55,536 bases of DNA from a virus (Duplodnaviria; Caudoviricetes): positions 1 to 55,536 of the IMG/VR virus record IMGVR_UViG_3300020045_005976; one strand, written 5' to 3'. The translations under genes were made by a program, and so were the position numbers. The first letter of the stretch is position 1; each line of letters opens with the position of its first letter. The notes below the pieces were generated by a model. The model saw only the letters and a program-made list of their open reading frames with translations. It was not told where the DNA came from and made no database searches. Of this stretch, positions 24,849-48,713 are shown in pieces.

Positions 24849-26102
24849 TTGAGGCGCATAATTACATTACCGAAGCTGCATTCGGCGCAAATTGAAATCG
24901 TCAAGGCGGTTGAACGCTTCCTTGTGATTTCAGGTGGGCGGCGATTTGGCAAGGGCGTCGTCGGCATCGGCGAAGGGTACAAGCGTGGGATTCACGGGGG
25001 GAAATGTCGCTGGATTTCGCCGTCTTACGCATCGGATTCGTTTCAGGCCGGTTGGAATATGGCCGTGAACCTGGCCAACCAAATACCCGGCGTTGACATT
25101 CACCAGCAGCGAAAAGAGTTTTCGTTTCGGCGGATTGGTGGCGGATTCCTGCAATTCAGGACAGCGGAGGAGCCAGACGGGTTGCGCGGTGAGGGCATCG
25201 ACTTTGTAATTTTCGACGAGGCGGCACACATTCGCGGCTTGAAGGATATTTGGGACCTATGTGTCCGTCCGTCACTTATGGACCGCAAGGGAAGCGCATG
25301 GTTTATCTCAACACCAAAAGGCCACAACGATTTCGCTGAATTCTTCAAGCGGGCTGAAATTGACAAGGATTGGCGCAGCTTTATTTTTCCAACTTGCTCG
25401 AATCCATATATCGAAAAGTCTGAAATTGAATCGATGCGAAAAGGGTTGCCGTCGCTTGTTGCTCGACAAGAAATTGACGCGGAATTTGTTCAACTCGCGG
25501 GCATGTTGTTCAAGCGGGAGTTGATTCGATTCATCGATGAGGAGCCGCAGAACGTGCGCTGGGTCAGGTCCTGGGATTTGGCGTTCACCGAGAAAACAAC
25601 GTCAGACTTCACCGCATCTGCGAAAATGGCCGTCGCTGCGGACGGGACAGTGATTGTATCAGACGTTATCCATTTGCGCGCGGATTGGCCTGCTGTAGTG
25701 CGTCTAATCAAGCATACCGCACAAATGGACGGTCCGACGGTCGTGCAGGGAATCGAAGTCGTCGGCGCTCAAGTCGGGATGCTGCAAACACTCATGGCCG
25801 ATCCGATGATGGTCGCGACTCCGTTTAAAGCCATTCAAGTGACGAAAGACAAAGTGACGCGGGCCTTGCCGCTGGTGGCGCGGGCCGAGCAAGGCAAGCT
25901 GGTTTTTGTCCGTGGCGCGTGGAATAAATCCGCGCTTGATGAGATTTCCGCATTTCCCGAAAGCGAACATGATGACCAAGTGGATGCCATGTCGGGCGGA
26001 CTCAACATGCTGTCCGAACCATCCCCGGCGTTTAAATCCACCAGTGAAATAATTACCGGGAAAAGTGATTTCGACATTGACAGAGTGAACTTTTTAGAAT
26101 AG
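24849..26102 (+). CDS. terL: Terminase large subunit
   Basis: GGRRFGKG, GLRGEGIDFVIFDEAA, ISTPKG, RSWDLA and HDDQVDA motifs. Confidence 0.95.
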   Translation: MRRIITLPKLHSAQIEIVKAVERFLVISGGRRFGKGVVGIGEGYKRGIHGGKCRWISPSYASDSFQAGWNMAVNLANQIPGVDIHQQRKEFSFRRIGGGFLQFRTAEEPDGLRGEGIDFVIFDEAAHIRGLKDIWDLCVRPSLMDRKGSAWFISTPKGHNDFAEFFKRAEIDKDWRSFIFPTCSNPYIEKSEIESMRKGLPSLVARQEIDAEFVQLAGMLFKRELIRFIDEEPQNVRWVRSWDLAFTEKTTSDFTASAKMAVAADGTVIVSDVIHLRADWPAVVRLIKHTAQMDGPTVVQGIEVVGAQVGMLQTLMADPMMVATPFKAIQVTKDKVTRALPLVARAEQGKLVFVRGAWNKSALDEISAFPESEHDDQVDAMSGGLNMLSEPSPAFKSTSEIITGKSDFDIDRVNFLE

Positions 26103-26296
26103 GGTCAGTGCATCAAATCCTCGCATAAAGAAACAAACCCTATTTTCCCTAAAGACATGTGTATCACATGGCCGGAAGGAATGGGCATCACTCGCAAATA
26201 TGTTGACTCAGAAAGCTTTAAAAATCCATCGCTGGAAATCAAGGATGCGTTCAAGTCGGTGATGATTGTGGGTAACGAAAAGCCGAAAGGAAAAGT

Positions 26297-26443
26297 GTGA
26301 ATCAAAGCACGACTACATTTTGGGAAAACGCATTCCTGATTATTCGGGTTGCATTGATTGTGATTTGGCTAACCGTTTTGGCCGGATTTGTTGCGCGATT
26401 CATGTGCAAACTATTCATGATCGGATTTAACGCTTTTCAATAA
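26297..26443 (+). CDS. Small membrane protein (48 aa)
   Basis: GTG start overlapping the previous stop; AFLIIRVALIVIWLTVLAGFVA. Confidence 0.45.
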   Translation: MNQSTTTFWENAFLIIRVALIVIWLTVLAGFVARFMCKLFMIGFNAFQ

Positions 26444-26446
26444 TTT

Positions 26447-26707
26447 ATGAATAACACCTGTGAACGATGCCAGCATTTCCGCTGTTTTTATGCCGAGAAG
26501 CAAGGCCGATGCTTTGGCCAACCTCCGCAAATGTTTCAGAACGGATTTCAGCAAACCAACCAGCCAATCGTGAAAACGGACCGACCTGCCTGTTTCTTTT
26601 TCAAGCCGATTCCAATTGATGCCGAGGTTATCACATTCACGAAGGCCAGCCCTGAAACCCCAGGCGACGCGGCAAAACAGGCCGTGGCGCTGAAGAAAAA
26701 GAAGTAG
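26447..26707 (+). CDS. Small Cys-rich protein
   Basis: CERCQHF..GRCFGQPP..AC motif. Confidence 0.65.
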   Translation: MNNTCERCQHFRCFYAEKQGRCFGQPPQMFQNGFQQTNQPIVKTDRPACFFFKPIPIDAEVITFTKASPETPGDAAKQAVALKKKK

Positions 26708-26825
26708 AATTTTCCGCGCATAGAACGCCATGCCGGTGGCGCGAATCCAATGTGTGCGACGGGTGCGGAAACTGGGTGCTGTTGACCCAGATTTGTAGCC
26801 CTAATTGGATACCGGCAACTATTTT

Positions 26826-26963
26826 ATGAAAAACTTAACAAGTGAAGATATTATGAATGCTGCCGCTGCAATTTTGCTTGCCTGCGCCTGCTTGATGGTT
26901 ATAAAAACGACATGGCTTTTCATGTTTGCGTCAAGGGTCGAATTAATGGAAATGGCAAAATAA
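26826..26963 (+). CDS. Small membrane protein (45 aa)
   Basis: Single hydrophobic segment; ttttATG start. Confidence 0.45.
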   Translation: MKNLTSEDIMNAAAAILLACACLMVIKTTWLFMFASRVELMEMAK

Positions 26964-26964
26964 T

Positions 26965-27090
26965 ATGAAAATTACAAAAAACAATTTACTGACTGCGTTC
27001 ATTGGATTAACGATGGCTTGTCTTTTGATTATTCTTGTGAATATTACATGGGCGATATCTGCCATGCCTTCCGGTCAGCTTTTTAGGTGA
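26965..27090 (+). CDS. Small membrane protein (41 aa)
   Basis: LLTAFIGLTMACLLIILVNITWAI; 1 nt after the previous stop. Confidence 0.45.
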   Translation: MKITKNNLLTAFIGLTMACLLIILVNITWAISAMPSGQLFR

Positions 27091-27094
27091 TTTT

Positions 27095-27178
27095 ATGACA
27101 CTGCTTTTTTACACCATCGCTTTTCTAATCTGTTTAGGCTGGATTATTGCCAGTCATCACAATCCAACCGAATTATGA
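27095..27178 (+). CDS. Small membrane peptide (27 aa)
   Basis: MTLLFYTIAFLICLGWIIA; ATGA-coupled to the next gene. Confidence 0.4.
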   Translation: MTLLFYTIAFLICLGWIIASHHNPTEL

Positions 27179-27366
27179 AACTTGACGAGCCGTTTATCTG
27201 TCCGACCTGCGGGAAGGTTTGGCGATTCCACAACCACTGCGTTACTTGCGACAGAATTTCCAAGGCGCTTGACCCGAAGGATGACCCGACAATGACCCCG
27301 CTCGGGGATGGTGGATACATGCGGCGGTCGTTCATTGCGCAGGAATGCGGCAGGCCAAATGATTAG
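27175..27366 (+). CDS. Zn-ribbon-like small protein
   Basis: CPTC...CVTC. Confidence 0.5.
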   Translation: MKLDEPFICPTCGKVWRFHNHCVTCDRISKALDPKDDPTMTPLGDGGYMRRSFIAQECGRPND

Positions 27367-27403
27367 TCGCGACATTTGAAACGCTTTTCGGAAAGATTAA
27401 ATC

Positions 27404-27658
27404 ATGAAATACAAACTAATAACCACGCAAGAAGGAAAGAAAAAAGTCGCGTTTCGCTACTCAGTCAATGATCGTTTCACCGTGCGCGAGACATTCAGGG
27501 ATAAGTCGGTAAAAGTCTATTGCCGGATGGATGACGGTGCGATTGTGGGAGCTGGCAGCGTTGCGGCACCTGACGCACCGCCGAAAAAGAAAGCCTTTCC
27601 CGTTTCGGCAATCAAGTCGGCTGCGGATCATCTTTTGAATTTTGGAGGTGCGAAATGA
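27404..27658 (+). CDS. Hypothetical protein
   Basis: Coupled ORF. Confidence 0.55.
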   Translation: MKYKLITTQEGKKKVAFRYSVNDRFTVRETFRDKSVKVYCRMDDGAIVGAGSVAAPDAPPKKKAFPVSAIKSAADHLLNFGGAK

Positions 27659-27918
27659 ATGCAATCACTTTGCTTTTCATTATTTCGGCAATTCTCATAA
27701 TTGCAGTTGTTGTCTTAGTGGTGAAAATTGCTGCCGTTGAAGGAAGAATTAATAGAATTGCTTGGCGTATCGACGAAGCTAAAGAACTTGTTTTAAAAAG
27801 TGAAAACTCGAACCACGTTGATATGATTGCGGAGGAGGTTTGCGCCATTAAAGACCATCTTAATATTGACGCTGTTTATGTGAAGAAGCACGTCGAAATG
27901 AGGAGTAAGACGAAATGA
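27655..27918 (+). CDS. Membrane-anchored protein
   Basis: N-terminal TM helix; GGAGG upstream. Confidence 0.6.
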   Translation: MNAITLLFIISAILIIAVVVLVVKIAAVEGRINRIAWRIDEAKELVLKSENSNHVDMIAEEVCAIKDHLNIDAVYVKKHVEMRSKTK

Positions 27919-27994
27919 CAATTATAGAATTTGGATTTAATGTCTCGGCATGTTTGCTTGGGTTTTGGGTTGCGGGTAAAATCTTTAAAATAAA

Positions 27995-28207
27995 ATGAAA
28001 ACAAAAAGGCGTTCAGCGGCATCAATGTGTCCACACTTAACACGAAAGCGTGCGCTTAAGCGCCTTCGTAAATTCAAAAAGTTTTACAATGAAGGGAAAA
28101 AGCTTTATTTAGACGAGGGAATTAGATTCTTTCCAGAGGTTTTAAATTACGCAATGATGAAGCTGAGGCGTTACAATCGCAATATCACATACAGGAAAAC
28201 GAGATGA
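27995..28207 (+). CDS. Basic hypothetical protein
   Basis: Coupled ORF. Confidence 0.45.
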   Translation: MKTKRRSAASMCPHLTRKRALKRLRKFKKFYNEGKKLYLDEGIRFFPEVLNYAMMKLRRYNRNITYRKTR

Positions 28208-28488
28208 AAAATGATTTAAGCGAATTCCTCGTTAAGAAAACGTTCAGACTTACTGAATGTGAGTTTTTGAGCATTTACGCTGCGCTTGAGGTGTCAAAAC
28301 ATGTTGCGCACATGAATTGTATCTATATAAATTCGGCAATGAATCGCTTGCAAACAGAAGATGACATCCGAAAATCGACAAGTGCAATCATTCATGAAAA
28401 GATAATCGGTGAATCACTTGCGCTTTTGGATGGAATGCTTCGGATTGAAAGCGGAAAGCCGCATTGGAGAATTGAGGAAATCACATGA
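28204..28488 (+). CDS. Hypothetical protein
   Basis: Coupled ORF. Confidence 0.5.
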   Translation: MKNDLSEFLVKKTFRLTECEFLSIYAALEVSKHVAHMNCIYINSAMNRLQTEDDIRKSTSAIIHEKIIGESLALLDGMLRIESGKPHWRIEEIT

Positions 28489-28834
28489 AACCGCTGACTC
28501 GAAAGCGTAAAATCAAACGATGGCGGCAATATGTTCGTTCTGTAAATGGGAGAATCTCGGAGTCAGTAAGTTTTAATGAACTTGATCAAGCGGTTAGTGA
28601 TTTTTTCACGTCAGCAATCGCGGGGCTTGAAATCGCAAGGGATTATGATCGTCGGCATCGATAATAATCAAAATCAATTTTTGACGCGCGCAGTCTAAAC
28701 TTGTGGTAGAATTCCACCTGTGGCCCAGCTAGCCAGCGCAACGTTAGCCGTTGATCTGCGCGCGTCAAATTCGGTAAACCAAAAACGAAAGGAATATATG
28801 AAAGGATACTAAACGAAATCCATTTATTGTTGTG

Positions 28835-28868
28835 GCCGCGCTCATTAGGTACTTGGGCGCGGCTTTTT
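28835..28868 (+). terminator. Intrinsic terminator upstream of the portal gene
   Basis: GCCGCGCTCA-9-TGGGCGCGGC followed by TTTTT. Confidence 0.65.
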
Positions 28869-29037
28869 CGTGCCCATATTGCGCACGATAAAAATCGAAT
28901 GGTGCGTAATTGAGTAGTCAAGTATTCCTTGTCAACTGAGTTTGGAATCCATAAACCGGAAACCCCCTATTTCCGGTAGATCATCATTTTCGGTAAAAAT
29001 CTGTTGCTTCCCACTTGACGCAATTCAATTTTGGATT

Positions 29038-30789
29038 GTGGCGAGAATTTTAGGCCTTGACATAACACTCCGCAAAGCTCCTTCAAAGGTGCCGGAAATC
29101 ACCGGCAGTAACTTTGCGGCGTTATCTGTTCGTGCAACGGTGGCATCTGCCAGTGTGCCTGCGAATGAGGCTAACTCGTCATTTATCCAAGCAACTGGTG
29201 AATTGCCCGTAACGCTTCCCAAGCGCAGGGCAGACGCGCAAGGTTTGTCAACGCGCAATGTAAGCGCGTCTCCGTTGGACGATTGGTTTATGGCGATACC
29301 TTCAAAGGTGCCGCCCAAGCAAGTTGACAGCATCCTTCGTGGCGCTGCCGCCGGTAATCTCTGGAATCAATACCAGCTATCCCGGCGAATGGAAGAAAGT
29401 TGGCCGGTTTACAAAAAGTGCGTTCTTGAACTAAAAACAGCAGTCGCTTCGGCAAAGTACGTTGTTCATCCGCACTGTGAACCAGGCCAAGAGCCAACGC
29501 CGTCCGCAATTGAGAAAGCCGATGTTGTCCGTCGCGCCATCCAAGGTTTTCAGCCGGACCGTTTCGCGGATGAAGACGGCTTTAACGGGATGGTTTTCGA
29601 CCTTTGCGAGGCGGTAATGAATGGCATTTCCATTGTCGAATTGATTTGGAATGAGCGCGCCATTGATCCGAATGGTGGGCCGGAATCGGTTGTAAAATCT
29701 TCTTCGTGGGTAAATCCGCGCAATATTTCCTTCAAATCTGACGGCTCGCTTGGTGTCGCCCGCGCTTCTGAGTCAGGCAATATGTCGTTCTCAAACCAAG
29801 TTCGAGACGACCTAATGAGCGACCCCGATAAGTTTCTCGTTGCTAAAATTAAAAGCAAATCCGGCTCGCCTTTGACTGCTGGACTCATGCGGACCTTGGC
29901 GCAAATGTGGGTAATGGTTGTCTATGGCCGCGACTACGCGCTCAATTTTGCGCAGAAATACGGCAATCCTTTTTTTGACATCACATTTGACACAAAGGTA
30001 ACTGGCAATAACGACAAGAATGACTTTGAACGACTCGCTAAAGACGCGGTGAATCAAGGGTGGTGCGTTCATCCGCTTGGGACTGAGTTGAAGTTGGGGG
30101 CGGCACATACAATGGGCAGTGAAAACGCCCACATGACATTGATGAAGTTTGCCGACGAGCAATGCCAATTGCTTTTGCTTGGCCAAACTTTGACGACTTC
30201 TGTTGGCGCTTCTGGTTCTCGCGCACTTGGCTCGGTCCATGAAAACGTGCGTCAAGAAATCATTGAGCACTATGCGCAGTGGATTGCCGGAATCTTGACT
30301 GACCAATTTGCAGACTCGGTTTGCCGGGTAAATTTCGGAACGTCTTACACCAAGAATCCCGAGCGCCCGACCATTGTCGCCGACTTCTCTCGCCCGTTGA
30401 GCGTCATGGAGACCGCCGAATATTTGCAGAAATTGTCTAATGTTTCCGTGCCTTTGGTGGCGGACGAGATTTACAAGTTGGCCAACGTCCAGCAACCCGC
30501 CGCTGGCGATAAGTCATTAAATCACGGCAATCTTATAATTGCGGAAGAGCCGATGACTGAAACCGAGAAAAGGCAAAAAGATTTTGACACTCAAATGGCC
30601 CAGCAAGAATCTGTTAATGAAATGACGAGTAATGCACAGGTTCAAGGCGCTATAACTTCCGCATCTTATGATGATCGGTGGCAGCTTGAAAGCCTTGTGT
30701 CTGCCGCTGAAAAGGCCACGCATTTAAACGGTGAAGCAACTGCCGTTAAAAACAAAGTTGCAGAACTTTTGACCAATAAAACGCGATGA
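29038..30789 (+). CDS. Portal protein, DUF935/Mu gp29-like (start uncertain)
   Basis: AVMNGISIVELIW, FAQKYGNP and LLLLGQTLTT..GSRALGSVHENVR motifs. Confidence 0.9.
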   Translation: MARILGLDITLRKAPSKVPEITGSNFAALSVRATVASASVPANEANSSFIQATGELPVTLPKRRADAQGLSTRNVSASPLDDWFMAIPSKVPPKQVDSILRGAAAGNLWNQYQLSRRMEESWPVYKKCVLELKTAVASAKYVVHPHCEPGQEPTPSAIEKADVVRRAIQGFQPDRFADEDGFNGMVFDLCEAVMNGISIVELIWNERAIDPNGGPESVVKSSSWVNPRNISFKSDGSLGVARASESGNMSFSNQVRDDLMSDPDKFLVAKIKSKSGSPLTAGLMRTLAQMWVMVVYGRDYALNFAQKYGNPFFDITFDTKVTGNNDKNDFERLAKDAVNQGWCVHPLGTELKLGAAHTMGSENAHMTLMKFADEQCQLLLLGQTLTTSVGASGSRALGSVHENVRQEIIEHYAQWIAGILTDQFADSVCRVNFGTSYTKNPERPTIVADFSRPLSVMETAEYLQKLSNVSVPLVADEIYKLANVQQPAAGDKSLNHGNLIIAEEPMTETEKRQKDFDTQMAQQESVNEMTSNAQVQGAITSASYDDRWQLESLVSAAEKATHLNGEATAVKNKVAELLTNKTR

Positions 30790-32558
30790 ATGTAAAAGCA
30801 CACGAAGCAACCGGCCACGTCACTATGCATGGGCACGCAATGAAGCTGCATTCCGCCGTTAATCGCGCCATCCAAGACGATGCCCGGTTCAATATCCCAC
30901 CGCAGGACGCCGCGAATCTGTGCTATAAGCCGAAGCCCTATGTTGTGGACATTATCACGCCCGACGAAAACGGCAATCATTTCGCGGTAATTAGCACGGC
31001 GCGCGGAGAATTGCTGCGTCATGGATTTGAATACAACACGGAAGACGGCGCGGTGAAATTGGCCGATGGCGAATCATCCAAGACAGAATCAACGCACGTC
31101 TATTCGCGTGAGTGCGAAAAGTTTGATGCGCTAATCAAGGCGCATTCGTCCGATTTTATTCAGTGCCGGGCGTCCAGCGGCGTGAAGCTTTCCGCCAAAG
31201 AGGTCTGGGAATCGGGCAAGCCTGTGTCATTCATTTACGCCCCCGGCGGCACGACGACGATTAACGCAGGTTTCCGCAAGGGTGAATCCATTACCTGCTG
31301 CGTTCAAATCGACGAGGACACCGCGAAAGATTTGCAAGACTCGTTTGATTTTGTCTGCGCTACGGAAAAGCAGGAGCCGTATTCAGATGAAGACCATGAG
31401 GCTAAGAAGGCCACTTTGCGCTTTCCGAAAGGCCAAGTCAATTTCACTTATGGCACGATTCGCGGCGAGGAAGGCATCATTGTCAGTGGGGCGGAGCCGA
31501 CATCTTACGGGGCTGAAGCGGTCAATGGCAAGGTGTATGCATCGTGGTCGCCTGAATTTGCGACGGATGCCAATTATGAAAAAGCGAAGTGCAAGAAAGG
31601 CCACTGGACCTTTCCAGATGGTGTTCGCGGCTCGGCTTCAAACCCTGCGCGAATGGTGGCCATTTCATTTGTCACTGGGGCTTTGACCAATAAGCCCGCG
31701 TTCAAAAACATGCCGAACGTGAAAGCGAAGAAGGTTGAAAACGAAGTGGAAAAAGCGCCATCCATCGGTTCGCTGATTAACTTCATTTCGCTGGTGAAAA
31801 TCGCTCATTTCAACGCGGATACTAAGACAAACGACCATGAATCGTTGGGTGAATTGTATGACGATTTGGCTGATTTAGCCGATTCGTTCGCGGAAACATT
31901 CTGCGGCGCTTTTGGCGTCAAGGTGGAAAACGAACCAGTTGACATGGCTGCCAGCTCTGACTTCACCGCGATTCTCGACAAGGGGACTGAAATTGTTGCC
32001 GCGCTCCGCGTGGCCTGCGAAGGAAAAGAGGACTTGCTCAATCTTTTGGCGGACATGGACAAAGCTTTGAACCATTCACGATTCTTGCTTAAAGCGACGG
32101 ACCAAGTCGAGGGTGAAACGGTTAAGGCTGGCGACTTTCCTGGCCATCCCTTTCGTGGAAATCAGCACATGTCCGGTCACGGCTCGGGGCCACATCACAG
32201 CGCCAGCCGGAAAGCGCACTTTTCCAGCAAAAAAGCAAAAGACAAAAAGAGTCATGAAGAAGCTGCGGCGCATCACGAAAAAGCGGCCAAGTCGTGGAGT
32301 AAGCAAGATGACGGAGACGAGGCTTCAGATTATCACACGACCATGTCTGAATTTCACAAGCGCGCAGCTTTGAAAAAGGAGAAGAAAGCCGCCGTGAAAA
32401 CAACCGAAGCACCAACAGAAGATCTGATCATTAAAGCATTTTTCGCCAAGACCGAGGCGGAAAAAGCGATTGCCCATCAATTTACCAAACGGATTCCCGG
32501 TATTGATACCCGTGAAACTGTTGCCCAATTTCTTGCCCGGTCGGGTAAGAACGGCTGA
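30786..32558 (+). CDS. Mu gp32/I-like prohead protease polyprotein with a ferritin-like (DUF5856/Dps-like) domain and His-rich tail
   Basis: YASWSPEF and GALTNKPAF protease motifs; KIAHF..HESLGELYDDL..LADSFAE four-helix motif; GDFPGHPFRGNQH. Confidence 0.75.
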   Translation: MNVKAHEATGHVTMHGHAMKLHSAVNRAIQDDARFNIPPQDAANLCYKPKPYVVDIITPDENGNHFAVISTARGELLRHGFEYNTEDGAVKLADGESSKTESTHVYSRECEKFDALIKAHSSDFIQCRASSGVKLSAKEVWESGKPVSFIYAPGGTTTINAGFRKGESITCCVQIDEDTAKDLQDSFDFVCATEKQEPYSDEDHEAKKATLRFPKGQVNFTYGTIRGEEGIIVSGAEPTSYGAEAVNGKVYASWSPEFATDANYEKAKCKKGHWTFPDGVRGSASNPARMVAISFVTGALTNKPAFKNMPNVKAKKVENEVEKAPSIGSLINFISLVKIAHFNADTKTNDHESLGELYDDLADLADSFAETFCGAFGVKVENEPVDMAASSDFTAILDKGTEIVAALRVACEGKEDLLNLLADMDKALNHSRFLLKATDQVEGETVKAGDFPGHPFRGNQHMSGHGSGPHHSASRKAHFSSKKAKDKKSHEEAAAHHEKAAKSWSKQDDGDEASDYHTTMSEFHKRAALKKEKKAAVKTTEAPTEDLIIKAFFAKTEAEKAIAHQFTKRIPGIDTRETVAQFLARSGKNG

Positions 32559-32600: not shown

Positions 32601-34295
32601 ATGAAAATCACACTAACTAAAGTCCCGCAAGGCTCGACTGCAAAAGCGGGTGATAACCAAGACGCCACTGGTGTCGAAATGGACGCCTTGCGCGCCAATG
32701 GTTACGAGTTCCAAACCGACGCCGAATTGCGCTTGCTGAAAGCTCGCGAAGTCGCCGTTGACAATGCAATCCGGGCTTCCAAGGCCTTCGCGCCAAAAGA
32801 AGACACCAGCGAAATTAAGGCTACGGCCATTGCCCTTGAAGGCATCAAGGACGGTTCCGGCGTAACTTACATTCAGTCGCTTTCTCCCAAGGTGTCTGAA
32901 TTGAGTCAGCGAGTTACCGCGTCCGATGCGGCCCAGTCTGTTCATTCGGTGAGCATGGGCGAGGTTGGCCTGCGTGAAACCGTTCGCGGCTTCTTGCAAG
33001 CCAGCGAGCAGGACATGAAGATGCTGAAAAACGGCGGCATTATCCGCGCGACGCACAAGGATGCGAAGGGTATTTCCGATGCCGTTTCCATGTCGCAGGA
33101 AAAGAGTCTTATCAGCGCGAAAATGGCCGATATGATTGCTCGCGGTGGCGACTTCCGCATGACTGAGGACTTTGTCAAAGCGGCTTACGATGGCTACGCC
33201 GATGCGAATGGCGCTTTGGGTGTGCTCAATTCCGCGTTGACGCTGCAATGGAATCTGGGTCATCTGGAAAACCAGTTGATTATGCTGGACGACATTTGCA
33301 CGGACGTTAGCGGCACTCCGGTTCTGTACAATCAACAGGCCCGCACCCGCTACATCAAAGTTCCTGGCGTGCAGCTCAAGACGGCTACGAATGCGTGGTC
33401 GGGCACGGCTGGTAACGATGTTGACGTGAACGTACTGATGAACAACTACGCAGGTGTTCCGATCAGCGTGAACAACGCCATCATTAATTCTACGGCTCGT
33501 CAGTTGATGAACGAGCAGAAGCAGCCGCAGCTTTACGGCTTGGCTGAATATATTCTGTACACGCTGATCAAAACGGCCATCGACGGTTCGACTCGTTTTG
33601 ACAACACCGGAATTGCCTCGGCGATCCAGAAAGCTGCCTCGGCGTTTAGCGATCCGACTTTTGGCCCCGGTTATTTCAACGTGGCTGGCGCGACGCTGAA
33701 AACCTTCGTTTCCGACCTCCCGGCGGCTCAAGATTTGAGCAAGTTCCCCGGCGGCGACGAAGCCCCCGGTGCGGCTGATTTGCTGCGTTGGGCTTGGGTG
33801 CATACCAGCCTTTACGCTTCCATCGCTGGCGATAGCAGCTTCCAGCTCAACCAGTCCATTCAGGGTATCCGCCAGCAGCCTGACCAAAACCTGATTCGCA
33901 CTGGTCGGTTCAGCGAATTGGGCAATAACAAGTTCCGCAAATCGCAATTGATGGTGGATAACAACTCCACTACCGGCACTGGCGCGGATGGTGGTGCAAA
34001 TGCGATGTTTGTCACGCCTGGTGCTTACGGCGAGGCCAAGGTTGTCGGTCTGGCTGGTACTCGTTCCGGTCTGCTGTTTGTTTCCCGCGTGCCGCTGGAT
34101 TACACCAAGGTGATGCCGGAAATCCCCAGCACGGCGGCGATTGAGTTGTTCACGACCCCGAAACTCGGCATCCCGTTCATGATCGTGAAATACCTCGACC
34201 ACGCCTACGAAACGGCCAACATGCGCGCGCAGCTCATGTGGGGTTCCGCCGTCGGCGACGAGCGCCAGCTCATGTTGCTCAAGCAGCAAGCCTAG
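32601..34295 (+). CDS. Major capsid protein with N-terminal scaffold-like extension
   Basis: Position after the protease, 564 aa and strong codon bias; no diagnostic motif recognised. Confidence 0.75.
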   Translation: MKITLTKVPQGSTAKAGDNQDATGVEMDALRANGYEFQTDAELRLLKAREVAVDNAIRASKAFAPKEDTSEIKATAIALEGIKDGSGVTYIQSLSPKVSELSQRVTASDAAQSVHSVSMGEVGLRETVRGFLQASEQDMKMLKNGGIIRATHKDAKGISDAVSMSQEKSLISAKMADMIARGGDFRMTEDFVKAAYDGYADANGALGVLNSALTLQWNLGHLENQLIMLDDICTDVSGTPVLYNQQARTRYIKVPGVQLKTATNAWSGTAGNDVDVNVLMNNYAGVPISVNNAIINSTARQLMNEQKQPQLYGLAEYILYTLIKTAIDGSTRFDNTGIASAIQKAASAFSDPTFGPGYFNVAGATLKTFVSDLPAAQDLSKFPGGDEAPGAADLLRWAWVHTSLYASIAGDSSFQLNQSIQGIRQQPDQNLIRTGRFSELGNNKFRKSQLMVDNNSTTGTGADGGANAMFVTPGAYGEAKVVGLAGTRSGLLFVSRVPLDYTKVMPEIPSTAAIELFTTPKLGIPFMIVKYLDHAYETANMRAQLMWGSAVGDERQLMLLKQQA

Positions 34296-34302
34296 CAATC
34301 AC

Positions 34303-34916: not shown

Positions 34917-34978
34917 CCTGCCGTTACTGACGGCGTGCGCCTCAATCTGCTTTGAAGCGTGCGCCGTCCCTCTGTTTT

Positions 34979-35632
34979 ATGGAAACAAAATGGGTCACAT
35001 TAAAGGCGAGTGATTTGGCGCGAGTTATCGCCGTCGAAGTTCTTGGCAAGTCAAATGAGAACATTGATGCCGATAGCGTTGCGAATAAATTAGCCAATGC
35101 CGAAAGCCGGGCGGCATATGACCCGACGCTTGACGACCGGGCAACCCAGCAGATTTCAATGGCGGTTGCTGAATGTCGCGGGGCAATTCAAATGGGCGAC
35201 AAGTCGGCGCTTTCATTGGAAGTTGGCGCGGTGCCACCTGAATGCGTGGTTCACGTTCTTTACCTTGCGGCATATCGGCTGGTTAACAGTTCGCCGAATC
35301 TGCAAATGGTGATTCTTTCGGACAAAGGCGCGTATTCGCCGCTGACCGACAATTTCAAATCGGCGCAGAAGTATATTGAATTGTTGTCCAACGGCAAGCC
35401 GACCGTTCCACCAAGCGAGCCAACTGGCCGCGACTATTTGACGGCGATTAATACGCCGTGGTTCTGTAATTCGCCATCGCCGTTTCCGCCCTACAATCCA
35501 GATTTGCCAATCAATCCGCCGGTTGCTGGTGTGCGCTTTGGCGGATCAACCCGTGCCGACTTGAGCACGTTTGACTCTATTTTTATGTCGCCCGCTCCGC
35601 TGGGGTGGCCGTCAAGCATTGGCCAGCCATGA
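34979..35632 (+). CDS. Head-tail adaptor (Mu gp36/DUF1320-like)
   Basis: Synteny; ISMAVAECRG..VPPEC..LAAYRL..FKSAQKYIELLSNGK pattern. Confidence 0.65.
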   Translation: METKWVTLKASDLARVIAVEVLGKSNENIDADSVANKLANAESRAAYDPTLDDRATQQISMAVAECRGAIQMGDKSALSLEVGAVPPECVVHVLYLAAYRLVNSSPNLQMVILSDKGAYSPLTDNFKSAQKYIELLSNGKPTVPPSEPTGRDYLTAINTPWFCNSPSPFPPYNPDLPINPPVAGVRFGGSTRADLSTFDSIFMSPAPLGWPSSIGQP

Positions 35633-36642
35633 TAACTCTACAGGAAAGAATTTCCGCGCGAGCTTTGGCGATGCGGGCTTTGAATATTATCAAGGCGACG
35701 CACATTAAGGAATACACCAAAGTCGTTGACGGAAAAACTGTAACTGTAAAACAGCACGAAGACAGCCGAGACAAATGGACCGGCGGCGCTGGCGGAATTC
35801 ACCTAAAGCGAACCGGAGAAGGAAAAGAGGGCAAATGGGTGACGCACGACGATAAAGAGATACCGGAACACGCCAAGAAATTGGTCATTCCGCCAGCTTG
35901 GAAGAATGTTCGCGTCGCCCCCGATGAAAGCCATGATTTGCAGGCCATTGGCGAGGACTCAAAGAATCGCGTTCAAAGAATTTATTCGGAAGAGGCGACT
36001 CAGAAAGCGGCAGACCAAAAGTTTTCGCGCAATTCTGAGTTACTTAAAAAGCAGGGATATATTTTCAAGCAGAACGAAGCCAATCGGAAAAGCGAGAATC
36101 TAAAAACGCGCGAAGCTGCCGATTGCATGAAGTTGATTCAAGAAACCGGAATCAGGCCGGGTAGCGACGCGGATACAGGCGCGAAGAAAAAAGCTTATGG
36201 CGCAACCACGCTTGAAGCGCGCCACATTGTCATCAGTTCCAGTGGTTCCGTTAGCCTGCAATTTGTTGGCAAAAAAGGCGTTGAACTAAACATTCCAGTG
36301 CATGACGAAAGCACGATTGAAATGCTGAAAGAAAAGAAAGAAAGGTTTAGCGACGATGAAAGAATTTTCTCAACATCTGACGCAATGCTGCGGGAATATT
36401 CGCACACACTGGACGGCGGAAGCTTCAAGCCGAAAGATTTTCGCACACTGAAAGGCACAAATACCGCCGTCGAAGAAATCGAAAAGAATCCAAAGCCAGC
36501 GAAGACGATGGATGAATATAAAAAGCGAGTAATGGAAATTGCCAAAAAGGTTTCGCAAGCGTTAGGTAATACTCCAATAATCGCATTGCAATCATATATT
36601 AATCCTTTTGTTTTTGATGTCATTAAACCAATTTCCGAATGA
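35629..36642 (+). CDS. DNA topoisomerase IB (bacterial/poxvirus type)
   Basis: IPPAWKNV, LQAIGED, GIRPG, YGATTL, FVGKKG, KDFRT, LGNTP and QSYINP; full catalytic set. Confidence 0.93.
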   Translation: MITLQERISARALAMRALNIIKATHIKEYTKVVDGKTVTVKQHEDSRDKWTGGAGGIHLKRTGEGKEGKWVTHDDKEIPEHAKKLVIPPAWKNVRVAPDESHDLQAIGEDSKNRVQRIYSEEATQKAADQKFSRNSELLKKQGYIFKQNEANRKSENLKTREAADCMKLIQETGIRPGSDADTGAKKKAYGATTLEARHIVISSSGSVSLQFVGKKGVELNIPVHDESTIEMLKEKKERFSDDERIFSTSDAMLREYSHTLDGGSFKPKDFRTLKGTNTAVEEIEKNPKPAKTMDEYKKRVMEIAKKVSQALGNTPIIALQSYINPFVFDVIKPISE

Positions 36643-37478
36643 GTCTTGAACCTAAAATAGTTGATTGGCGAAAGAGTGCCAAGGATACGGACTTCGACCC
36701 GGACGACACCGAGATGGCCGAAACTCCGCGCGATGTTATTTTGGCGCTTGGATTTGATCCAAAGGAATTGAGCGAAGAAAGCGTAAAGGCAAGCGACGCC
36801 GGTGCAGATATTCAAGACGCAATTCGGCGCGAGTCCGAAGAATTGTTTCAATCCGCCATTGACGAGTTTCTGATTCACGCAAAGGCTGATGCGCTGGCGA
36901 AGAAGCGGAAAAAGCGGCAGGAGATGGACGAAATTTTCCTTTTGCTTATGACTGATTCGGCGAGCGAATCATACAAGATTGTTTATACAAAGCTTGAAAA
37001 GTTCAACGAGGCCAAGAATCCAATGGCGGCAAAAGAAGTTGCGAAAGCCGCAGAAGTCTATGCCGGAGCGCGCGAGAAGTTTTTAAAGAATTTCCCAGAT
37101 GAAGTGGCCGACAAGTTGGCCAAGGTTAAAGACGACGCAGAGCTGGCCGACAAGACGCCAGCCGAAGTCCGAAAAGAGGTTAGCAAGGCGGCTGGCGCTA
37201 TTAGCGAAGGCCAAGGAAAAGTTGTCGCCGAAACTGAAGCGCAGGTTTGCTATGGATCGGCAGTCATTGCTGCCATAAAGCGAGCCGGAAAGACGCACAA
37301 GTTTTGGCAGACCATGCAAGACGATCATGTTCGCCATTCGCATGAGCAATGTCAGCTTCAAGGGACGATTCCGGTTGGCAACATGTTCCATAATTTGATG
37401 CTTTATCCTGGCGATCCAAACGGCGCTCCAGAGGAAATTATCAATTGCCGGTGCATCCTTTTTGGCGTCACAAAATGA
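36639..37478 (+). CDS. MuF/SPP1 gp7-like head morphogenesis protein with acidic N-terminal peptide
   Basis: VAETE, KFWQTMQDDHVRHSH and YPGDP..PEEIINCRC motifs. Confidence 0.88.
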   Translation: MSLEPKIVDWRKSAKDTDFDPDDTEMAETPRDVILALGFDPKELSEESVKASDAGADIQDAIRRESEELFQSAIDEFLIHAKADALAKKRKKRQEMDEIFLLLMTDSASESYKIVYTKLEKFNEAKNPMAAKEVAKAAEVYAGAREKFLKNFPDEVADKLAKVKDDAELADKTPAEVRKEVSKAAGAISEGQGKVVAETEAQVCYGSAVIAAIKRAGKTHKFWQTMQDDHVRHSHEQCQLQGTIPVGNMFHNLMLYPGDPNGAPEEIINCRCILFGVTK

Positions 37479-37927
37479 CCATAACCGCCACAGTTGATAC
37501 GTCAAAGTTTGAGTCTGATTTAGCTGAAAAGATGAATCACGCCAAGGTTTTTACGCTTGAAGCTATGCGTGACAGGCTTTACGAAATTGTGATTGGCAAC
37601 TTTGGTGCGTTTCCGGTGGATAGGCCGGATTGGGAAACGAATTATCTTTCGATGCAATACGCAAAGAGGGTTGGCAGAAATGTGGCAACAATGGTTGAAA
37701 GCGGATCCATGCGAGACGCGGTAATGAAAGGCGGAACTGGCGGAAATTCAACGTCGGTATCGCTCTCAAATTCATCCGTCCCGTATGCCACGGTTCATCA
37801 TTTTGGGAATGGAAACATGCCGAGACGGCCAGTTTTTCCAATTGAAGAAGACGGAACAATTCGCTCATTCACGCAAATGTCCGTAATTAACGCAGCCAAC
37901 CAAGCTTTCGCGGAGGCAATGCAATGA
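37475..37927 (+). CDS. Mu gpG-like virion morphogenesis protein
   Basis: ESGSMRDAV and VPYATVHHFG..NMPRRPVF motifs. Confidence 0.75.
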   Translation: MTITATVDTSKFESDLAEKMNHAKVFTLEAMRDRLYEIVIGNFGAFPVDRPDWETNYLSMQYAKRVGRNVATMVESGSMRDAVMKGGTGGNSTSVSLSNSSVPYATVHHFGNGNMPRRPVFPIEEDGTIRSFTQMSVINAANQAFAEAMQ

Positions 37928-44204: not shown

Positions 44205-46678
44205 GTGTAATAACTCAATCCGAATTAGACGACTTGGCTACAATGGCCAATGGATGCCTGTTGCCGATTGTAAATAATTACATGGCGACAGAAGAAATCA
44301 ACTGGGTTTTAAATACTGGATACGATAAGCACACGGGATATTACTCTTATCCTGGAGTCTACGCTTCTCCGCAACCGCCATATTCATTCAAAATAGCTCC
44401 GTTTGAAAATCTGGTTCCATCCGGTTCTGTTTTTGGAGTTGATGGATCGTTTCAAATCACGATAACCGAAACGGGCGACTATGATGTTTTAATGGGGCAG
44501 AATGAGGGTTTAGACGAAGATGAATTTTCGTTTCGGGTAAACATTCATGGTTATAATTTTTACGTCCGCTGCCTATATATAACGGAGGGCCAAACTGTAA
44601 CCGTTTACGGAACTGCCGGAAATTCGGTGACAGCAATTATATCAAAATCCCAGTCGACGTTTATTAATGAGATTAACCGAATTCGCGGCGACGCAATGGG
44701 CTTGCTAGTTGGCCCAAATGGAACTCCGGTTCCTGGCGGTGAAGTTCTTTACAAGAACAGGGACGCGGTTATGTCTGGGCCGTGGGTTGTCGGGGTGGTG
44801 GACATGGACACGTTTCCGAATAATTATTTCGGCGGAATATTCAGTAGGCTTTCGGGGAGCGTCGTCAACTTGCCTGGATTTCCAATTTTTAGGAATGTCG
44901 AATTTGTTGGACACGACTTGCCGGATGGATTTTTGGTTTATAGCGGTAATGTTGGTTTCCCGTTGATTGACATAACGCCGGGATTTAGATCAACCAGCGA
45001 TGACGAAGGCGAGCTGACGATTTTTATCAGATTTGCCTCTGATTACGGAACTGCCATTTGGGATGATATTGGATTTTCTTGTCCTTCGGCCGATTCCGTA
45101 ACGCTAATTTCAACTGAATCGGTATCTGGCGGATATTGGTTTCATGTTAAAATAGTCATAACGCTTTCTTCCGGTGTCAGCGATCATCCTTTTTCATACG
45201 GAATACCCGATGGCCACATTGGAACAAGCGTTGAAGAGTTTAGGCTTGTCACAAGCTCCATTGGGGACCTTGCTCCATGTAACGCCATCGGATACGCGGA
45301 AGGAAGTAAAATATCATCCATTGACGTTGGTGGGTTTTTAATGGAGCGAATAGACTCAATTGGGGCCGGAGAAAATTTTGCGTGGGGCGTGATAAGTTGG
45401 TGGATTTCGGATCAAACAGTAAAGGGGATTTGGATTGCAAAAACGCTCCCGATTCCGGCCAATAATGTCTTTCTAGATCAAGACATTCCCACTTATATCG
45501 GGAAAGATTATCCCGAGTTTATGGGATACACTGAAGGAAATAAAGTGACAGCTTCAGTCTCCAAAAGCTTTAATGGAACTGGTCCGCGCGCAACATCTAT
45601 GCGCCAGCAATCGCCAATAGAAGCCGAAAATAAAGTCAATCCAATGTCTCCGGGGTTAACCGCAAGGCCAGCAAAGTGGCCAGCGTTTAGGGACACGGAT
45701 TCCTTTACGCCGACTGTTCCATTCTTCCAGTATTCGCGCACTGCTTTATATTGGGACGAAACGCATGAATATGGATTGAACGATTATGCGCGTGCTGATT
45801 TCGGTAGAATATATCGCGGTCGCCACGCTTTAAATACTGGAAATCCGCTACCAGCAAGAGCGCAAGATGACAATACTTATTGGTGGGCTTTGGTTCCAGT
45901 TGACGCAATGGGTGTAGCTGAATGTTTTAGTTATGTTTTAAATGGATCGCCGGGCGTCAAGTCCTTCACTTCCACATTATCGGGCGATCAATCCAACATG
46001 TGGCACGTGAAGCCGATACCTAAAAGCGGGTATTGCATTTTCTCCGTTCGCGCCACGCGCATGGCCGAAAGCATCGGAAACGGAATAAACATTACTCCGA
46101 CTAGCGGGAACGAAATAGTGGTAAAGATTGGCCAAAAAATATCTGGTGTTTTTACGCCGTTTAAGTCAGATGATGGAATTGAAGATTTAACCATAACAAT
46201 TCCCGCAACTGGACGCGACACGGGAGACGTGAAGGTTTTTATTCCGGTCCTCGACGGCAATGAATTAATATGGCAATCAGATTCCCTTGTTGTTTTTGAG
46301 GCTTGTGTAAATTGGCAACCTATTTTCTTCAATGTGGCTTATAGTCGCGGTCAATTCCCAATTGATCCACAGTATGGATTCAATACCGCAGAGCCGGAAA
46401 TTTTCCAACACGCCTTGAGCTTTGAAAACCATTTTGACGTTACTTCTGCTGGATGGGCTTTTCCGCGAAATAGACTTGATGAATTTGGGTCAGGGACTCA
46501 GCCGCCTGCGGTGGTTGTCTACCCTGTGTTCCGAGAGCTTTACGATGACCTTGTGGCGCTTTTAAAGCTGCTTGGCGGCGAGCTGCCGGACGGCAATACC
46601 GCCAGCGGCGCGGGCGGCAGCGGCAGTGCTGGTGACAATATTGGATCAGGGGATGACAACGGCGGCGGAATGCTGTAA
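44201..46678 (+). CDS. Large tail protein
   Basis: Synteny; beta-rich; no signal peptide. Confidence 0.55.
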   Translation: MSVITQSELDDLATMANGCLLPIVNNYMATEEINWVLNTGYDKHTGYYSYPGVYASPQPPYSFKIAPFENLVPSGSVFGVDGSFQITITETGDYDVLMGQNEGLDEDEFSFRVNIHGYNFYVRCLYITEGQTVTVYGTAGNSVTAIISKSQSTFINEINRIRGDAMGLLVGPNGTPVPGGEVLYKNRDAVMSGPWVVGVVDMDTFPNNYFGGIFSRLSGSVVNLPGFPIFRNVEFVGHDLPDGFLVYSGNVGFPLIDITPGFRSTSDDEGELTIFIRFASDYGTAIWDDIGFSCPSADSVTLISTESVSGGYWFHVKIVITLSSGVSDHPFSYGIPDGHIGTSVEEFRLVTSSIGDLAPCNAIGYAEGSKISSIDVGGFLMERIDSIGAGENFAWGVISWWISDQTVKGIWIAKTLPIPANNVFLDQDIPTYIGKDYPEFMGYTEGNKVTASVSKSFNGTGPRATSMRQQSPIEAENKVNPMSPGLTARPAKWPAFRDTDSFTPTVPFFQYSRTALYWDETHEYGLNDYARADFGRIYRGRHALNTGNPLPARAQDDNTYWWALVPVDAMGVAECFSYVLNGSPGVKSFTSTLSGDQSNMWHVKPIPKSGYCIFSVRATRMAESIGNGINITPTSGNEIVVKIGQKISGVFTPFKSDDGIEDLTITIPATGRDTGDVKVFIPVLDGNELIWQSDSLVVFEACVNWQPIFFNVAYSRGQFPIDPQYGFNTAEPEIFQHALSFENHFDVTSAGWAFPRNRLDEFGSGTQPPAVVVYPVFRELYDDLVALLKLLGGELPDGNTASGAGGSGSAGDNIGSGDDNGGGML

Positions 46679-46688
46679 AATAAAACAC

Positions 46689-48713
46689 ATGAAAAAAACA
46701 ATCTTAACACTTTTCCTTTTTGCTTTTGCGGCAAGCGCGCAATTGCAATTCGTTGATTTGACAACAGTCACGACCAACAGACTGACAAACACAGCAAACA
46801 TCGTAATAACTAACGCCCTAATTCCGGGCATTGCGACAAACGTAAGCTTATTTGGGCAATATCAAACATGGAATACAAATAACAGAGTCATCGGCGACAC
46901 GCTTCCAAATGCGTTCACGAAGATAAACGCAAACTCGACTTGGCTTTCTAGCGCGGTCCGCACAAATGGAAATTCCGGCTCTGGATTCATCCCTATTTCA
47001 ACTAATGCTTATCCCGGTTATTTTTGGGGCAGTAATTCGGCGGGTGGAATATCTGCCGCAACAGCGACAAACATTGCGGCATATCAGTCGATGCTGGCTA
47101 CGAATGGACTAACAGCGGGCGGCGGAACTGCATCAAATGCGATTGCAAACAACTACGGTGCAGGCACAAACATTTCATTTTTTGGTAAAACCTTGATGAA
47201 CGATTCTAATTTATATTTTTCAGCAAATTCAGAAGTTCCAAAAACATTGTCCTTATACACTATAACAAATCTTGCAAATGGAATAATCCCAACAATGACA
47301 CCTAGCGACACAAATAAAGCTTTTTGTTCACCGGATCAATATATTAATTTTTATGCATATAAAGCTTTTGATTACTACACTGGATCACCCTGGCAATCAG
47401 GTGGTGGTTCCAATGTTGTTTACATAGGATACAACTTCCCTTCAGTTAAAAAATTAGGTGCGTTAGTTGGATTCTTCTATATAACCGGAGGCGGATCAAC
47501 TGGTGGTGGAACTATATCTGTTCAAGTTGATGGGCCTAATTGGCGTACAGTATATTCAACCCACTTAACAAATGGAGCGCCAGCAGATTCGTTTCCAACT
47601 CTTTTTAATAGTACAAATAACTTAGTCATGTTTGATTCATTAAGCACAACAAATATTAGAGTCTTATTTTCAACTGCAAATTATCCAAGGATTAGTGGCT
47701 GGTTTCAGGTTTATGAAGAAGCTGGAAATTTAATAAAATCAGACACCTCAACATTGAGAATAATATCAACAAATGGAGTTGCTATAAATTCCGCCTACGC
47801 AGGAACAAACATGCTAAGAGTTTCTGGCAACATTGATTCAACTGTTGGATTCTCGATTAACGGAGTTCCAATCAACAATTCATCCAGCGATAATTTAAAT
47901 GGTGTGGTTTCTGGGTATTATTCAAACAATTTTTTCAGCGTAGTTGGAACAAATATGATAAAATCAATTTCTGGATCAATTAACGCTGGCGGTGTGGTTT
48001 CTGGCTATTTAACAAATCAGTCATTCAGCATATTGGGAACAAACGCAATAGCATCAATAGCCTCATCTGCATCATCTGGTAAAATTAAAACCTTATACGG
48101 ATTTGGAACCAATTTGACGCTTTATGGTTTCGCTGATGCCGTGACAACGAATCATGAAACTTTTATCCTGTCCGGCACAACTACTCACAATGGAACATAC
48201 ACCTGGAATGGCGTAAATGTTTTTGTGAATAATACAAATTCATCTCCTTCATATTATATTTATCCTTCCGAGGACGTTAGCGGCGGAGTTTATTACCCAT
48301 ATTATTCAACCAACGGATTCGTTATGAATTACGTGAACGGCGATTATCCAGACGGTCCATTTTATTCCATTGGAAGTGATTTAACTGCGGGTCCGTGGTA
48401 TAGCAGGGCGACTGGATTGGTTGACACAAACGTTATCGCGAGGTGGTATTTGTATACCACAAACCAAGTGCCCGGAACGGCTCAATTTGTAAATGGCGGA
48501 ATAATTGCTGATGGCTCGATTACGTCAACGAATGGCTTTTCGCTCCCGCAACTATCGTCAATCCCTACAAACAAAGTTCCGGTCAGCGATTCGGCGCGCA
48601 CGAATTGGCTACAGATAAACTTGAACGGAAGTGTTTATCTGGTGGCAACAAATTTCGCGTCTGGCGGCTGGCTTTATTCCAAGCAGACGGCATCAATAAC
48701 GACATCGCCGTAA
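46689..48713 (+). CDS. Signal-peptide, TN-rich fibre-like protein with a discoidin (F5/8C)-like segment
   Basis: MKKTILTLFLFAFAASA/QLQ leader; GDTLPNAFTKINAN fibre-like motif; AYKAFD..SPWQS..YIGYNF. Confidence 0.7.
   Translation: MKKTILTLFLFAFAASAQLQFVDLTTVTTNRLTNTANIVITNALIPGIATNVSLFGQYQTWNTNNRVIGDTLPNAFTKINANSTWLSSAVRTNGNSGSGFIPISTNAYPGYFWGSNSAGGISAATATNIAAYQSMLATNGLTAGGGTASNAIANNYGAGTNISFFGKTLMNDSNLYFSANSEVPKTLSLYTITNLANGIIPTMTPSDTNKAFCSPDQYINFYAYKAFDYYTGSPWQSGGGSNVVYIGYNFPSVKKLGALVGFFYITGGGSTGGGTISVQVDGPNWRTVYSTHLTNGAPADSFPTLFNSTNNLVMFDSLSTTNIRVLFSTANYPRISGWFQVYEEAGNLIKSDTSTLRIISTNGVAINSAYAGTNMLRVSGNIDSTVGFSINGVPINNSSSDNLNGVVSGYYSNNFFSVVGTNMIKSISGSINAGGVVSGYLTNQSFSILGTNAIASIASSASSGKIKTLYGFGTNLTLYGFADAVTTNHETFILSGTTTHNGTYTWNGVNVFVNNTNSSPSYYIYPSEDVSGGVYYPYYSTNGFVMNYVNGDYPDGPFYSIGSDLTAGPWYSRATGLVDTNVIARWYLYTTNQVPGTAQFVNGGIIADGSITSTNGFSLPQLSSIPTNKVPVSDSARTNWLQINLNGSVYLVATNFASGGWLYSKQTASITTSP

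Follow-up and report, generated by a model that had tools for sequence, protein, structure and literature searches.

The window analyzed here, a complete 55,536-nucleotide (nt) IMG/VR record of an uncultured phage with direct terminal repeats of 121 nt (positions 1-121 are identical to 55416-55536), encodes a type IB DNA topoisomerase (TopIB) within its head genes, directly ahead of a MuF-like minor head protein that opens with a short acidic peptide. Sequence comparison and structure prediction make it moderately probable, in our judgment, that these genes constitute a capsid-cargo TopIB cassette in a split and re-linked form, in which the acidic head of MuF would cap the catalytic cleft and carry TopIB into the procapsid, with TopIB leaving together with the DNA. 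In most relatives, TopIB is the C-terminal passenger of a portal or MuF protein, and an acidic peptide of approximately 45 residues is encoded directly after it; whichever protein serves as anchor, portal or MuF, is then joined to TopIB, while the peptide either stands free or begins the following gene. What sets the window apart is that the linkage is swapped: TopIB stands alone, and MuF carries the peptide as an N-terminal fusion. MuF-TopIB fusions elsewhere and the peptide-MuF fusion here together make a three-way Rosetta-stone case for contact among MuF, TopIB, and the peptide, and the swap itself argues that the three parts meet physically.

The TopIB gene (35629..36642, plus strand) encodes a free-standing protein of 337 residues counted from its ATG, with a GTG at 35605 as an alternative start. 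The protein matched PF01028 with 71.3 bits (E 1e-19; cut-off 23.7), or 72.6 bits in the genome search, and its residues 75-110 matched PF21338, the bacterial-type N-terminal domain, with 38.3 bits (cut-off 27); by Pfam, it is a single-enzyme protein. When aligned to the TopIB of Deinococcus radiodurans (structure 2f4q; E 8.4e-23), residues R176, K215, R272, N314, and Y323 fell in the catalytic columns, and all five are invariant across 28 homologs. We take these Arg-Lys-Arg-His/Asn-Tyr positions to be the catalytic pentad of the D. radiodurans enzyme. The AlphaFold2 (AF2) model reached a predicted local distance difference test score (pLDDT) of 86.9, and the solved structures closest to it by Foldseek were 2f4q (8e-15), 3m4a (1.7e-14), and the variola TopIB 2h7f (2.2e-13). 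Judged by these alignments and the model, the window TopIB is an intact enzyme of the bacterial type and is predicted to be active. Its gene shares ATGA overlaps with both neighbors, at 35629-35632 with the stop codon of an upstream 226-residue gene and at 36639-36642 with the start codon of MuF, and it lies in a Mu-like head module approximately 15 kb away from the replication genes at 11.5-20 kb. An earlier note on this DNA had claimed an intact TopIB, ATGA coupling on both sides, a place far from the replication genes, and an extra N-terminal leader with a HIKEY..VKQH segment, all of which were borne out.

That leader comprises residues 1-56 (35629..35796, plus strand) and precedes the TopIB N-domain. 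According to the AF2 model, it consists of a helix (residues 4-23), a beta hairpin (residues 26-43), and a disordered stretch (residues 44-56), with low pLDDT at 43-46. The HIKEY..VKQH segment, HIKEYTKVVDGKTVTVKQH, occupies residues 25-43 (nt 35701-35757), and HEDSRDKWTGGAGG, at residues 43-56 (nt 35755-35796), is a degenerate copy of a putative cargo tag. In fused relatives, a linker of the form HPR..G(K/R)(F/W)..GGG stands just before TopIB, at the same position as HEDSRDKWTGGAGG in the window; by a crude pattern that misses many variants, 45 of 70 open reading frames (ORFs) had this motif at most 85 residues away from the PPAW motif. The tag recurs at several domain borders inside single polyproteins, a sequence arrangement which suggests that the domains are separated by cleavage. 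In P0002 and P0003, the nearest homologs, the helix-hairpin-tag order is retained behind other N-terminal sequence.

A protein search returned 494 TopIB relatives, many with extra domains; among those sampled with Pfam, MuF, portal, ART-PolyVal, InPase, or NUDIX domains lay N-terminal of TopIB. No matches were obtained when a single TopIB protein was used as the query against viral contigs, and an alignment-based scan was then used, which yielded 169 loci with TopIB relatives. The best 80 of these were kept, holding 76 distinct TopIB ORFs; counts of loci below are given over these 80 and counts of ORFs over these 76. A portal domain, from four portal families, was fused N-terminal of TopIB in 28 ORFs and a MuF domain in 4, while six ORFs carried NUDIX and further ones carried InPase, ART, or GATase. 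As for the 44 ORFs fused to neither portal nor MuF, 23 had a portal or MuF gene among the two nearest same-strand ORFs on either side, and another 11 had TerL, prohead protease, cement protein, or DUF2213 within two ORFs; the remaining 10 had none of these. Because members of the clade are fused to portal or MuF in 32 of 76 cases and have one of these within two genes in 23 more, the TopIB of this clade is, on such gene linkage, probably capsid cargo. The order of the window, TopIB and then MuF, was found at seven loci (L008, L029, L043, L048, L052, L063, and L076).

In a quick tree of 93 TopIB cores, the portal-fused state required 18 changes, of which well-supported branches force at least 5; this indicates that fusion and fission are frequent; the window grouped with P0002 and P0003 among free or differently headed forms. 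The clade was found at only 8 loci in 185,579 species-representative genomes, all of them metagenome-assembled genomes. A single cultured phage in the phage collection gave a TopIB match, a distant one, to top1E of Bacteroides phage BS162P1; with 33% identity over half the protein and a location among small hypothetical genes, it was dropped as a model. Separately, intein-splicing-domain matches were seen in head-module ORFs adjoining or fused to TopIB (L013:3977-5779 and L030:3688-6789), one of them inside a MuF-TopIB fusion.

The acidic peptide is defined by the motif DWR..DPDDEEL.TP.DV..LGFDP and usually takes the form of a small ORF overlapping the end of the TopIB gene. The earlier note had proposed a survey of its co-occurrence with TopIB. 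Using a strict six-frame pattern with an acidity filter, we detected the motif 3' of TopIB in 70 of the 80 viral loci; L036, just below the filter, also carries it (71/80), and four more loci, L052, L062, L070, and L081, hold diverged copies, which makes 75 in all. It forms a separate ORF in 68 loci, and in 60 of them its start codon either overlaps the end of the TopIB gene or directly adjoins it; 38 of the 68 ORFs are no longer than 110 residues, and the other 30 extend beyond the peptide into a larger protein. At L055, L056, and L080, TopIB and the peptide share one reading frame, with the peptide on the C-terminal side. The consensus of 64 distinct copies reads ..D.HFG.......DWR.....D.DPDDEEL..TP.DV...LGFDP, in which L37, G38, D40, and P41 (MuF numbering) do not vary. 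We also considered a programmed frameshift from TopIB into the peptide, which is unlikely, since the offset between the two frames is +1 at 31 loci, +2 at 35, and 0 at 2, and most junctions contain a start codon; for the window itself, a stop codon four codons 5' of the MuF ATG in the frame of the peptide also speaks against a frameshift.

The reverse relationship was assessed by scanning viral contigs with two degenerate DNA patterns. The first, encoding DV..MLGFDP, matched 56 viral loci, 45 of which hold the true acidic motif; a full TopIB lies directly 5' of the motif in 41 of these 45 and a remnant consisting of the TopIB N-domain alone in 3, and the last is on a contig with TopIB elsewhere. 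The 11 matches that are not the motif comprise one spurious frame and ten members of a single family of approximately 383 residues with DVMTMLGFDPQSL, a non-acidic, unrelated protein (L091, L092, L104, L108, L115, L118, L124, L131, L132, and L134). The second pattern, encoding DV..(L)LGFDP, matched 37 loci, which were sorted by acidity before TopIB was looked up. TopIB was located 108-147 nt 5' of 22 of the 24 acidic matches; of the other two, one does not represent the motif, and the upstream sequence of the other is just 81 nt long. One true motif below the acidity threshold likewise has TopIB, and 12 chance matches do not, so that 23 of 23 assessable true copies have TopIB directly 5'. The seven cellular TopIB loci obtained from approximately 200 genomes lack the acidic motif and have basic C-terminal tails instead. 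Altogether, the two-way survey bears out the association that the earlier note had proposed and suggests that the acidic peptide is a near-obligate partner of this TopIB. We also observed that, in L089, L107, and L129, the TopIB N-domain (..LPPAWADVRYSD) runs in frame directly onto the acidic peptide and the catalytic domain is wholly absent, as though excised exactly.

When 1.84 billion representatives were searched with a profile, 1,048 members of the peptide family were returned at E<=1e-3 and 409 at E<=1e-10. Among the best 150, 113 are no longer than 110 residues, 36 are longer proteins with the motif in N-terminal position, and 1 has it after TopIB. Pfam families were matched in 14 of the 37 longer proteins, with no family in the other 23: DUF2213 in four (one of which, P0242, also has TopIB), ART in three, and MuF, XkdF protease, Acb1, a weak GNAT, a weak ATLF-like match, and HIPIP in one each. 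At two of the viral loci, L058 and L061, a ferritin-domain protein with an N-terminal acidic peptide comes after TopIB. Acb1, an anti-CBASS domain, lies directly after the peptide ORF in L021 (7478-7960) and is fused behind the peptide in P0246; this adjacency and fusion are, on sequence grounds, a link between the cassette and known counter-defence cargo.

In the window, the peptide heads the MuF-like minor head protein of 279 residues (36639..37478, plus strand). The ORF matched head-morphogenesis and portal-MuF families of PHROG at 1e-21 to 4e-23, and, in an alignment with five PF04233-bearing or related proteins, residues R232, H233, S234, and H235 (RHSH) and N269, C270, R271, and C272 (NCRC) were invariant. 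The PHROG matches indicate a divergent member of the PF04233 kind rather than a non-member. The protein ends in the NCRC motif with no C-terminal cargo, and its gene is atypically placed, after the capsid and adaptor-like genes rather than after the portal gene. The very acidic start described in the earlier note is present, with a net charge of -5 to -6 in each 30-residue stretch of residues 1-80 and the first 50 or so residues strongly acidic. Based on the alignment of 64 sequences, the conserved partner motif, VDWRKSAKDTDFDPDDTEMAETPRDVILALGFDPKEL, covers residues 8-45 (36660..36773, plus strand); nothing marks an end or a cut site at VKAS, where the peptide had been said to end, and conservation stops near residue 45. 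The closest MuF relatives, at approximately 30% identity, have no acidic peptide, and none of 12 MuF proteins adjoining TopIB at other loci begins with one. One further peptide-MuF fusion, P0233, was found; its MuF part could not be aligned to that of the window by BLASTP, and the fusion therefore seems to have arisen more than once. The comparison adds to the earlier note that a small gene of its own, directly after TopIB, normally encodes the peptide, and that the fusion to MuF seen here is unusual.

We co-folded the window TopIB with residues 1-56 of MuF, the second check that had been proposed. The complex scored 0.70 (runs of 0.74, 0.69, and 0.70), and the best of three controls scored 0.00; of 157 solved complexes, 116 attained this mark, as did 2 of 215 mismatched pairs, a calibration that is only rough because our own, unpaired alignments were used. 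At least 57% of the contacts were common to the runs, and the pLDDT of the partner was at least 55. The confident interface involves TopIB residues 124-132, 176, 215-218, 269, 294-305, 312-322, and 326-333 and peptide residues 20-45, with predicted direct contacts to R176, K215, and N314, three of the five catalytic residues; residue 269 is near R272, and residues 320-322 are beside Y323. The peptide is thus predicted to be laid over the catalytic cleft, where an inhibitor or a DNA mimic would sit, and the model suggests that TopIB travels switched off inside the virus particle. Taken together with the survey, these computations support the earlier interpretation of a TopIB paired with an acidic peptide that may be its inhibitor or a DNA mimic; packaging of TopIB is supported indirectly, by the fusions of the clade to portal and MuF and by the proximity of their genes. 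MAFFT had placed free peptides on the C-terminal segment of TopIB, which raised the possibility of a decoy that copies the active-site helix; with a profile-profile probability of 0.08%, this idea was dropped.

From these data, we propose the following course of events. The acidic N-terminus of MuF would bind TopIB across the catalytic cleft, and this plug would keep the enzyme off DNA both in the producing cell and in the DNA-filled head. As the peptide would also tie TopIB to MuF, a portal-associated minor head protein, the enzyme would be built into the procapsid. At infection, TopIB would exit with the DNA, lose its plug, and relax supercoils on the incoming genome, a proposal that draws on the precedent of poxvirus virions, which carry TopIB. 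Packaging, inhibition, tethering via MuF, ejection, and the host-side substrate of the enzyme are all steps that we infer. If this proposal is true, numerous uncultured phages would, like poxviruses, deliver a DNA-relaxing enzyme of their own to the cell; TopIB would be kept off beside tightly packed DNA by a plug of 45 residues, which would be a natural peptide inhibitor of a TopIB; and the arrangement would provide a testable rule for capsid cargo loading. Enzymes fused to MuF or to the portal are known as head cargo of phages. Our literature search found no paper on phage TopIB linked to portal, MuF, or virions, or on the cassette; nor did it find one with a topoisomerase as MuF or portal head cargo or with a dedicated peptide capping the active site of such a cargo.

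Several observations weigh against this proposal. Five of the 80 loci have no adjoining peptide; at L028, there is none in the remaining 400 nt, L025 and L026 continue into other sequence, and the contig of L032 ends. The peptide heads many unrelated downstream proteins (DUF2213, ART, XkdF protease, Acb1, and ferritin-like), and since it is fused to so many kinds of downstream gene, the MuF fusion may be a by-product of adjacency and a lost stop codon rather than a tether; only one other MuF fusion is present among the best 150 matches to the peptide family. The MuF ORF scored 27.2 bits (E 6.9e-06) against PF04233, under the cut-off of 29.6, and internal starts may yield MuF that is free of the peptide. 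In the window, TopIB is five genes away from the portal gene, and the tag in the TopIB leader is degenerate. Besides the rough calibration of the co-fold, the AF2 single-chain model of the natural fusion L055 gave the peptide a pLDDT of 28-62, not confidently docked, from an alignment in which the peptide was covered by 4 rows only. Finally, the relatives are all uncultured contigs.

A different account has TopIB acting at the portal, where it would remove DNA twist during pumping or release and stay in the capsid, with the peptide as a gate, instead of being an injected effector. The 28 portal fusions, with TopIB at the C-terminus, would put approximately twelve copies of the enzyme at the portal, and a peptide lying on the catalytic cleft in the model fits a gate. 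We nevertheless consider this account unlikely: TopIB is unjoined to portal or MuF in the window and in 44 of the 76 relatives, the repeated HPR..G.F tags suggest that domains are cut free, and TopIB shares polyproteins with NUDIX, ART, and InPase, domains read as delivered effectors in PMC5512222.

Slightly less likely still is a polymorphic toxin-immunity pair of the MuF kind, in which TopIB would be toxic cargo against competitors or the host and the peptide would be the immunity protein of the producer. Jamet et al. 2017 (PMC5576092) described MuF proteins that bear toxin domains at their C-terminus, with small ORFs for putative immunity proteins after them, and the small ORF here, which overlaps or abuts the end of TopIB in most separate-ORF cases, is predicted to cover the active site. 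That family, however, is tied to temperate phages, whereas the TopIB clade is nearly absent from the species-representative genomes, as noted above, and no integrase was seen among the window ORFs of at least 110 residues. TopIB also keeps the full residue set of a rejoining topoisomerase, and the word "topoisomerase" is absent from the main text of PMC5576092. That TopIB is an ordinary replication or transcription helper in a late operon, with the acidic stretch a variable MuF N-terminus, would suit a free-standing TopIB and the wide variation of MuF N-termini but is highly improbable given the two-way co-occurrence of TopIB and peptide, the fusions of the clade to portal and MuF, the co-fold that passed its controls, and the 1,048 representatives of the peptide family.

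The capsid-cargo proposal also has a more speculative extension, to which we give a small chance. The peptide and the TopIB cleft could form a modular plug and socket, such that any peptide-headed protein (MuF in the window; elsewhere ADP-ribosyltransferases, Acb1, a head protease, DUF2213, and ferritin-like proteins) would dock on capsid-anchored TopIB and DNA would displace the plug on genome exit. TopIB would in that case serve two purposes, as a hub where injected cargo is loaded and as a release switch gated by DNA, and the clade could also be the "not yet discovered" viral group of TopIB from which, as Forterre and Gadelle (2009) proposed, the bacterial enzyme derives. In a tree built with 34 phage rows drawn at random, with L062 (a long branch) and L192 (from an unpublished genome) left out, one branch with a support of 100 split the 7 sampled cellular TopIBs from the 40 phage-clade sequences; as this tree is unrooted, no direction of TopIB transfer can be read from it. 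By its sequences, the phage clade is a candidate for the missing viral relatives of bacterial TopIB, and a concrete one if the capsid-cargo proposal is true.

The remainder of the window is organized as follows. Early genes are on the minus strand up to approximately 10.4 kb, and the replication block encodes helicases, a methylase, a sliding-clamp-like protein, a DnaD-like loader, DnaB, and a single-stranded DNA-binding protein. The large terminase (TerL) gene is at 24849-26102. The structural module is headed by a Mu-type portal protein of 615 residues (28942..30789, plus strand; PF06074 Portal_Mu, E 5.8e-57; phrog_113, portal), after which come genes for proteins of 590, 564, 184, and 226 residues, TopIB, the peptide-MuF, a Neck1-like protein, and tail genes. 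The interval between terminase and portal, 26102-28942 (2.8 kb), holds just small ORFs of 63-106 residues and no family-sized gene, which is unusual inside a packaging-head operon. The 590-residue head protein (30786..32558, plus strand; phrog_858; DUF5856 at 31.3 bits, below the cut-off) has a Dps/ferritin-like middle domain, a Lys/Ala/Glu-rich tail, and a single canonical cargo-type tag, GHPFRGNQH, at nt 32145. No family matched the 564-residue protein, which is presumably the capsid protein; a 561-residue open frame on the minus strand (32613-34298), antisense to nearly all of this putative capsid gene, is probably a compositional artefact.

The 226-residue gene upstream of TopIB (34952..35632, plus strand), whose stop codon forms the first ATGA overlap, had been called an adaptor, a designation that was not confirmed. 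It has no Pfam or PHROG match; its likeness to Mu gp36-like clusters comes from a language-model atlas (feature score of 0.97, with PF07030 on 28-63% of members), so that a Mu gp36-like head-tail adaptor is a lead only. Downstream of MuF, the gene at 37445..37927 (plus strand) resembles Neck1 or tail-completion proteins (phrog_26, E 9e-06). The integrase scan covered the ORFs of at least 110 residues, and no tRNA or Rfam families were found in the window. In the tail region, two 68-nt copies with 74% identity lie 90 nt apart at 47901-48058, within a 713-residue ORF (46572-48713).

Among known systems, the D. radiodurans TopIB (2f4q/3m4a) resembles the window enzyme in its two-domain fold and its Arg-Lys-Arg-Asn-Tyr set. 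The phage clade differs from bacterial TopIB in having an N-terminal leader or tag, a location in the head module, and an acidic partner. Poxvirus TopIB (vaccinia H6R; variola 2h7f) is likewise a small TopIB with a fold that matches the window model, and it has a role in early transcription. It differs in belonging to a virus of eukaryotes and in having no portal, MuF, or acidic partner, and its sequence likeness to the window enzyme is weak (E 2.4e-07). The vaccinia H6R topoisomerase is classed as late in PMC11980589 and listed among the known virion enzymes in PMC1540416.

The MuF toxins of Jamet et al. (PMC5576092) likewise combine MuF-linked enzymatic cargo with a small cognate ORF directly 3'. 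In the window, by contrast, the order is reversed, with TopIB before the peptide-MuF, the cargo is a rejoining topoisomerase, and the small ORF is fused to MuF. An N-terminal MuF and a C-terminal toxin within one protein, which typify those toxins, are not combined here, as TopIB is a separate protein encoded 5' of MuF, and the integrase scan gave no sign of a temperate lifestyle in the window. The T4 protein 55.2, an inhibitor of Escherichia coli topoisomerase I (PMC4396842), is similarly a short phage protein aimed at a topoisomerase; its target is a host enzyme of type IA, whereas the acidic peptide is paired with the type IB enzyme of the phage itself. DNA-mimic inhibitors of the Ocr/ArdA kind occupy the DNA-binding site of their target with an acidic surface; the peptide is acidic, is predicted to contact the catalytic cleft, and may be such a mimic, with no sequence likeness to any named one.

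Another close concept is that of polyvalent proteins, whose domains (portal or MuF with InPase, NUDIX, and ART) were treated as virion-delivered by Iyer et al. 2017 (PMC5512222). In our survey, TopIB relatives share polypeptides with portal, MuF, InPase, NUDIX, and ART-PolyVal, architectures which that paper reads as packaged and injected. In the main text of that paper, TopIB is not named among the domains and "topoisomerase" appears only in the reference list, while its supplementary tables may list more. The window TopIB is encoded among virion and packaging genes, as polyvalent proteins are, but it is fused to nothing and so does not combine two or more effector domains in one polypeptide, as many of its relatives do; a dedicated partner peptide is also outside that concept. 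As a single-enzyme protein, the window TopIB would work like a split version of a polyvalent protein rather than being a member of that class.

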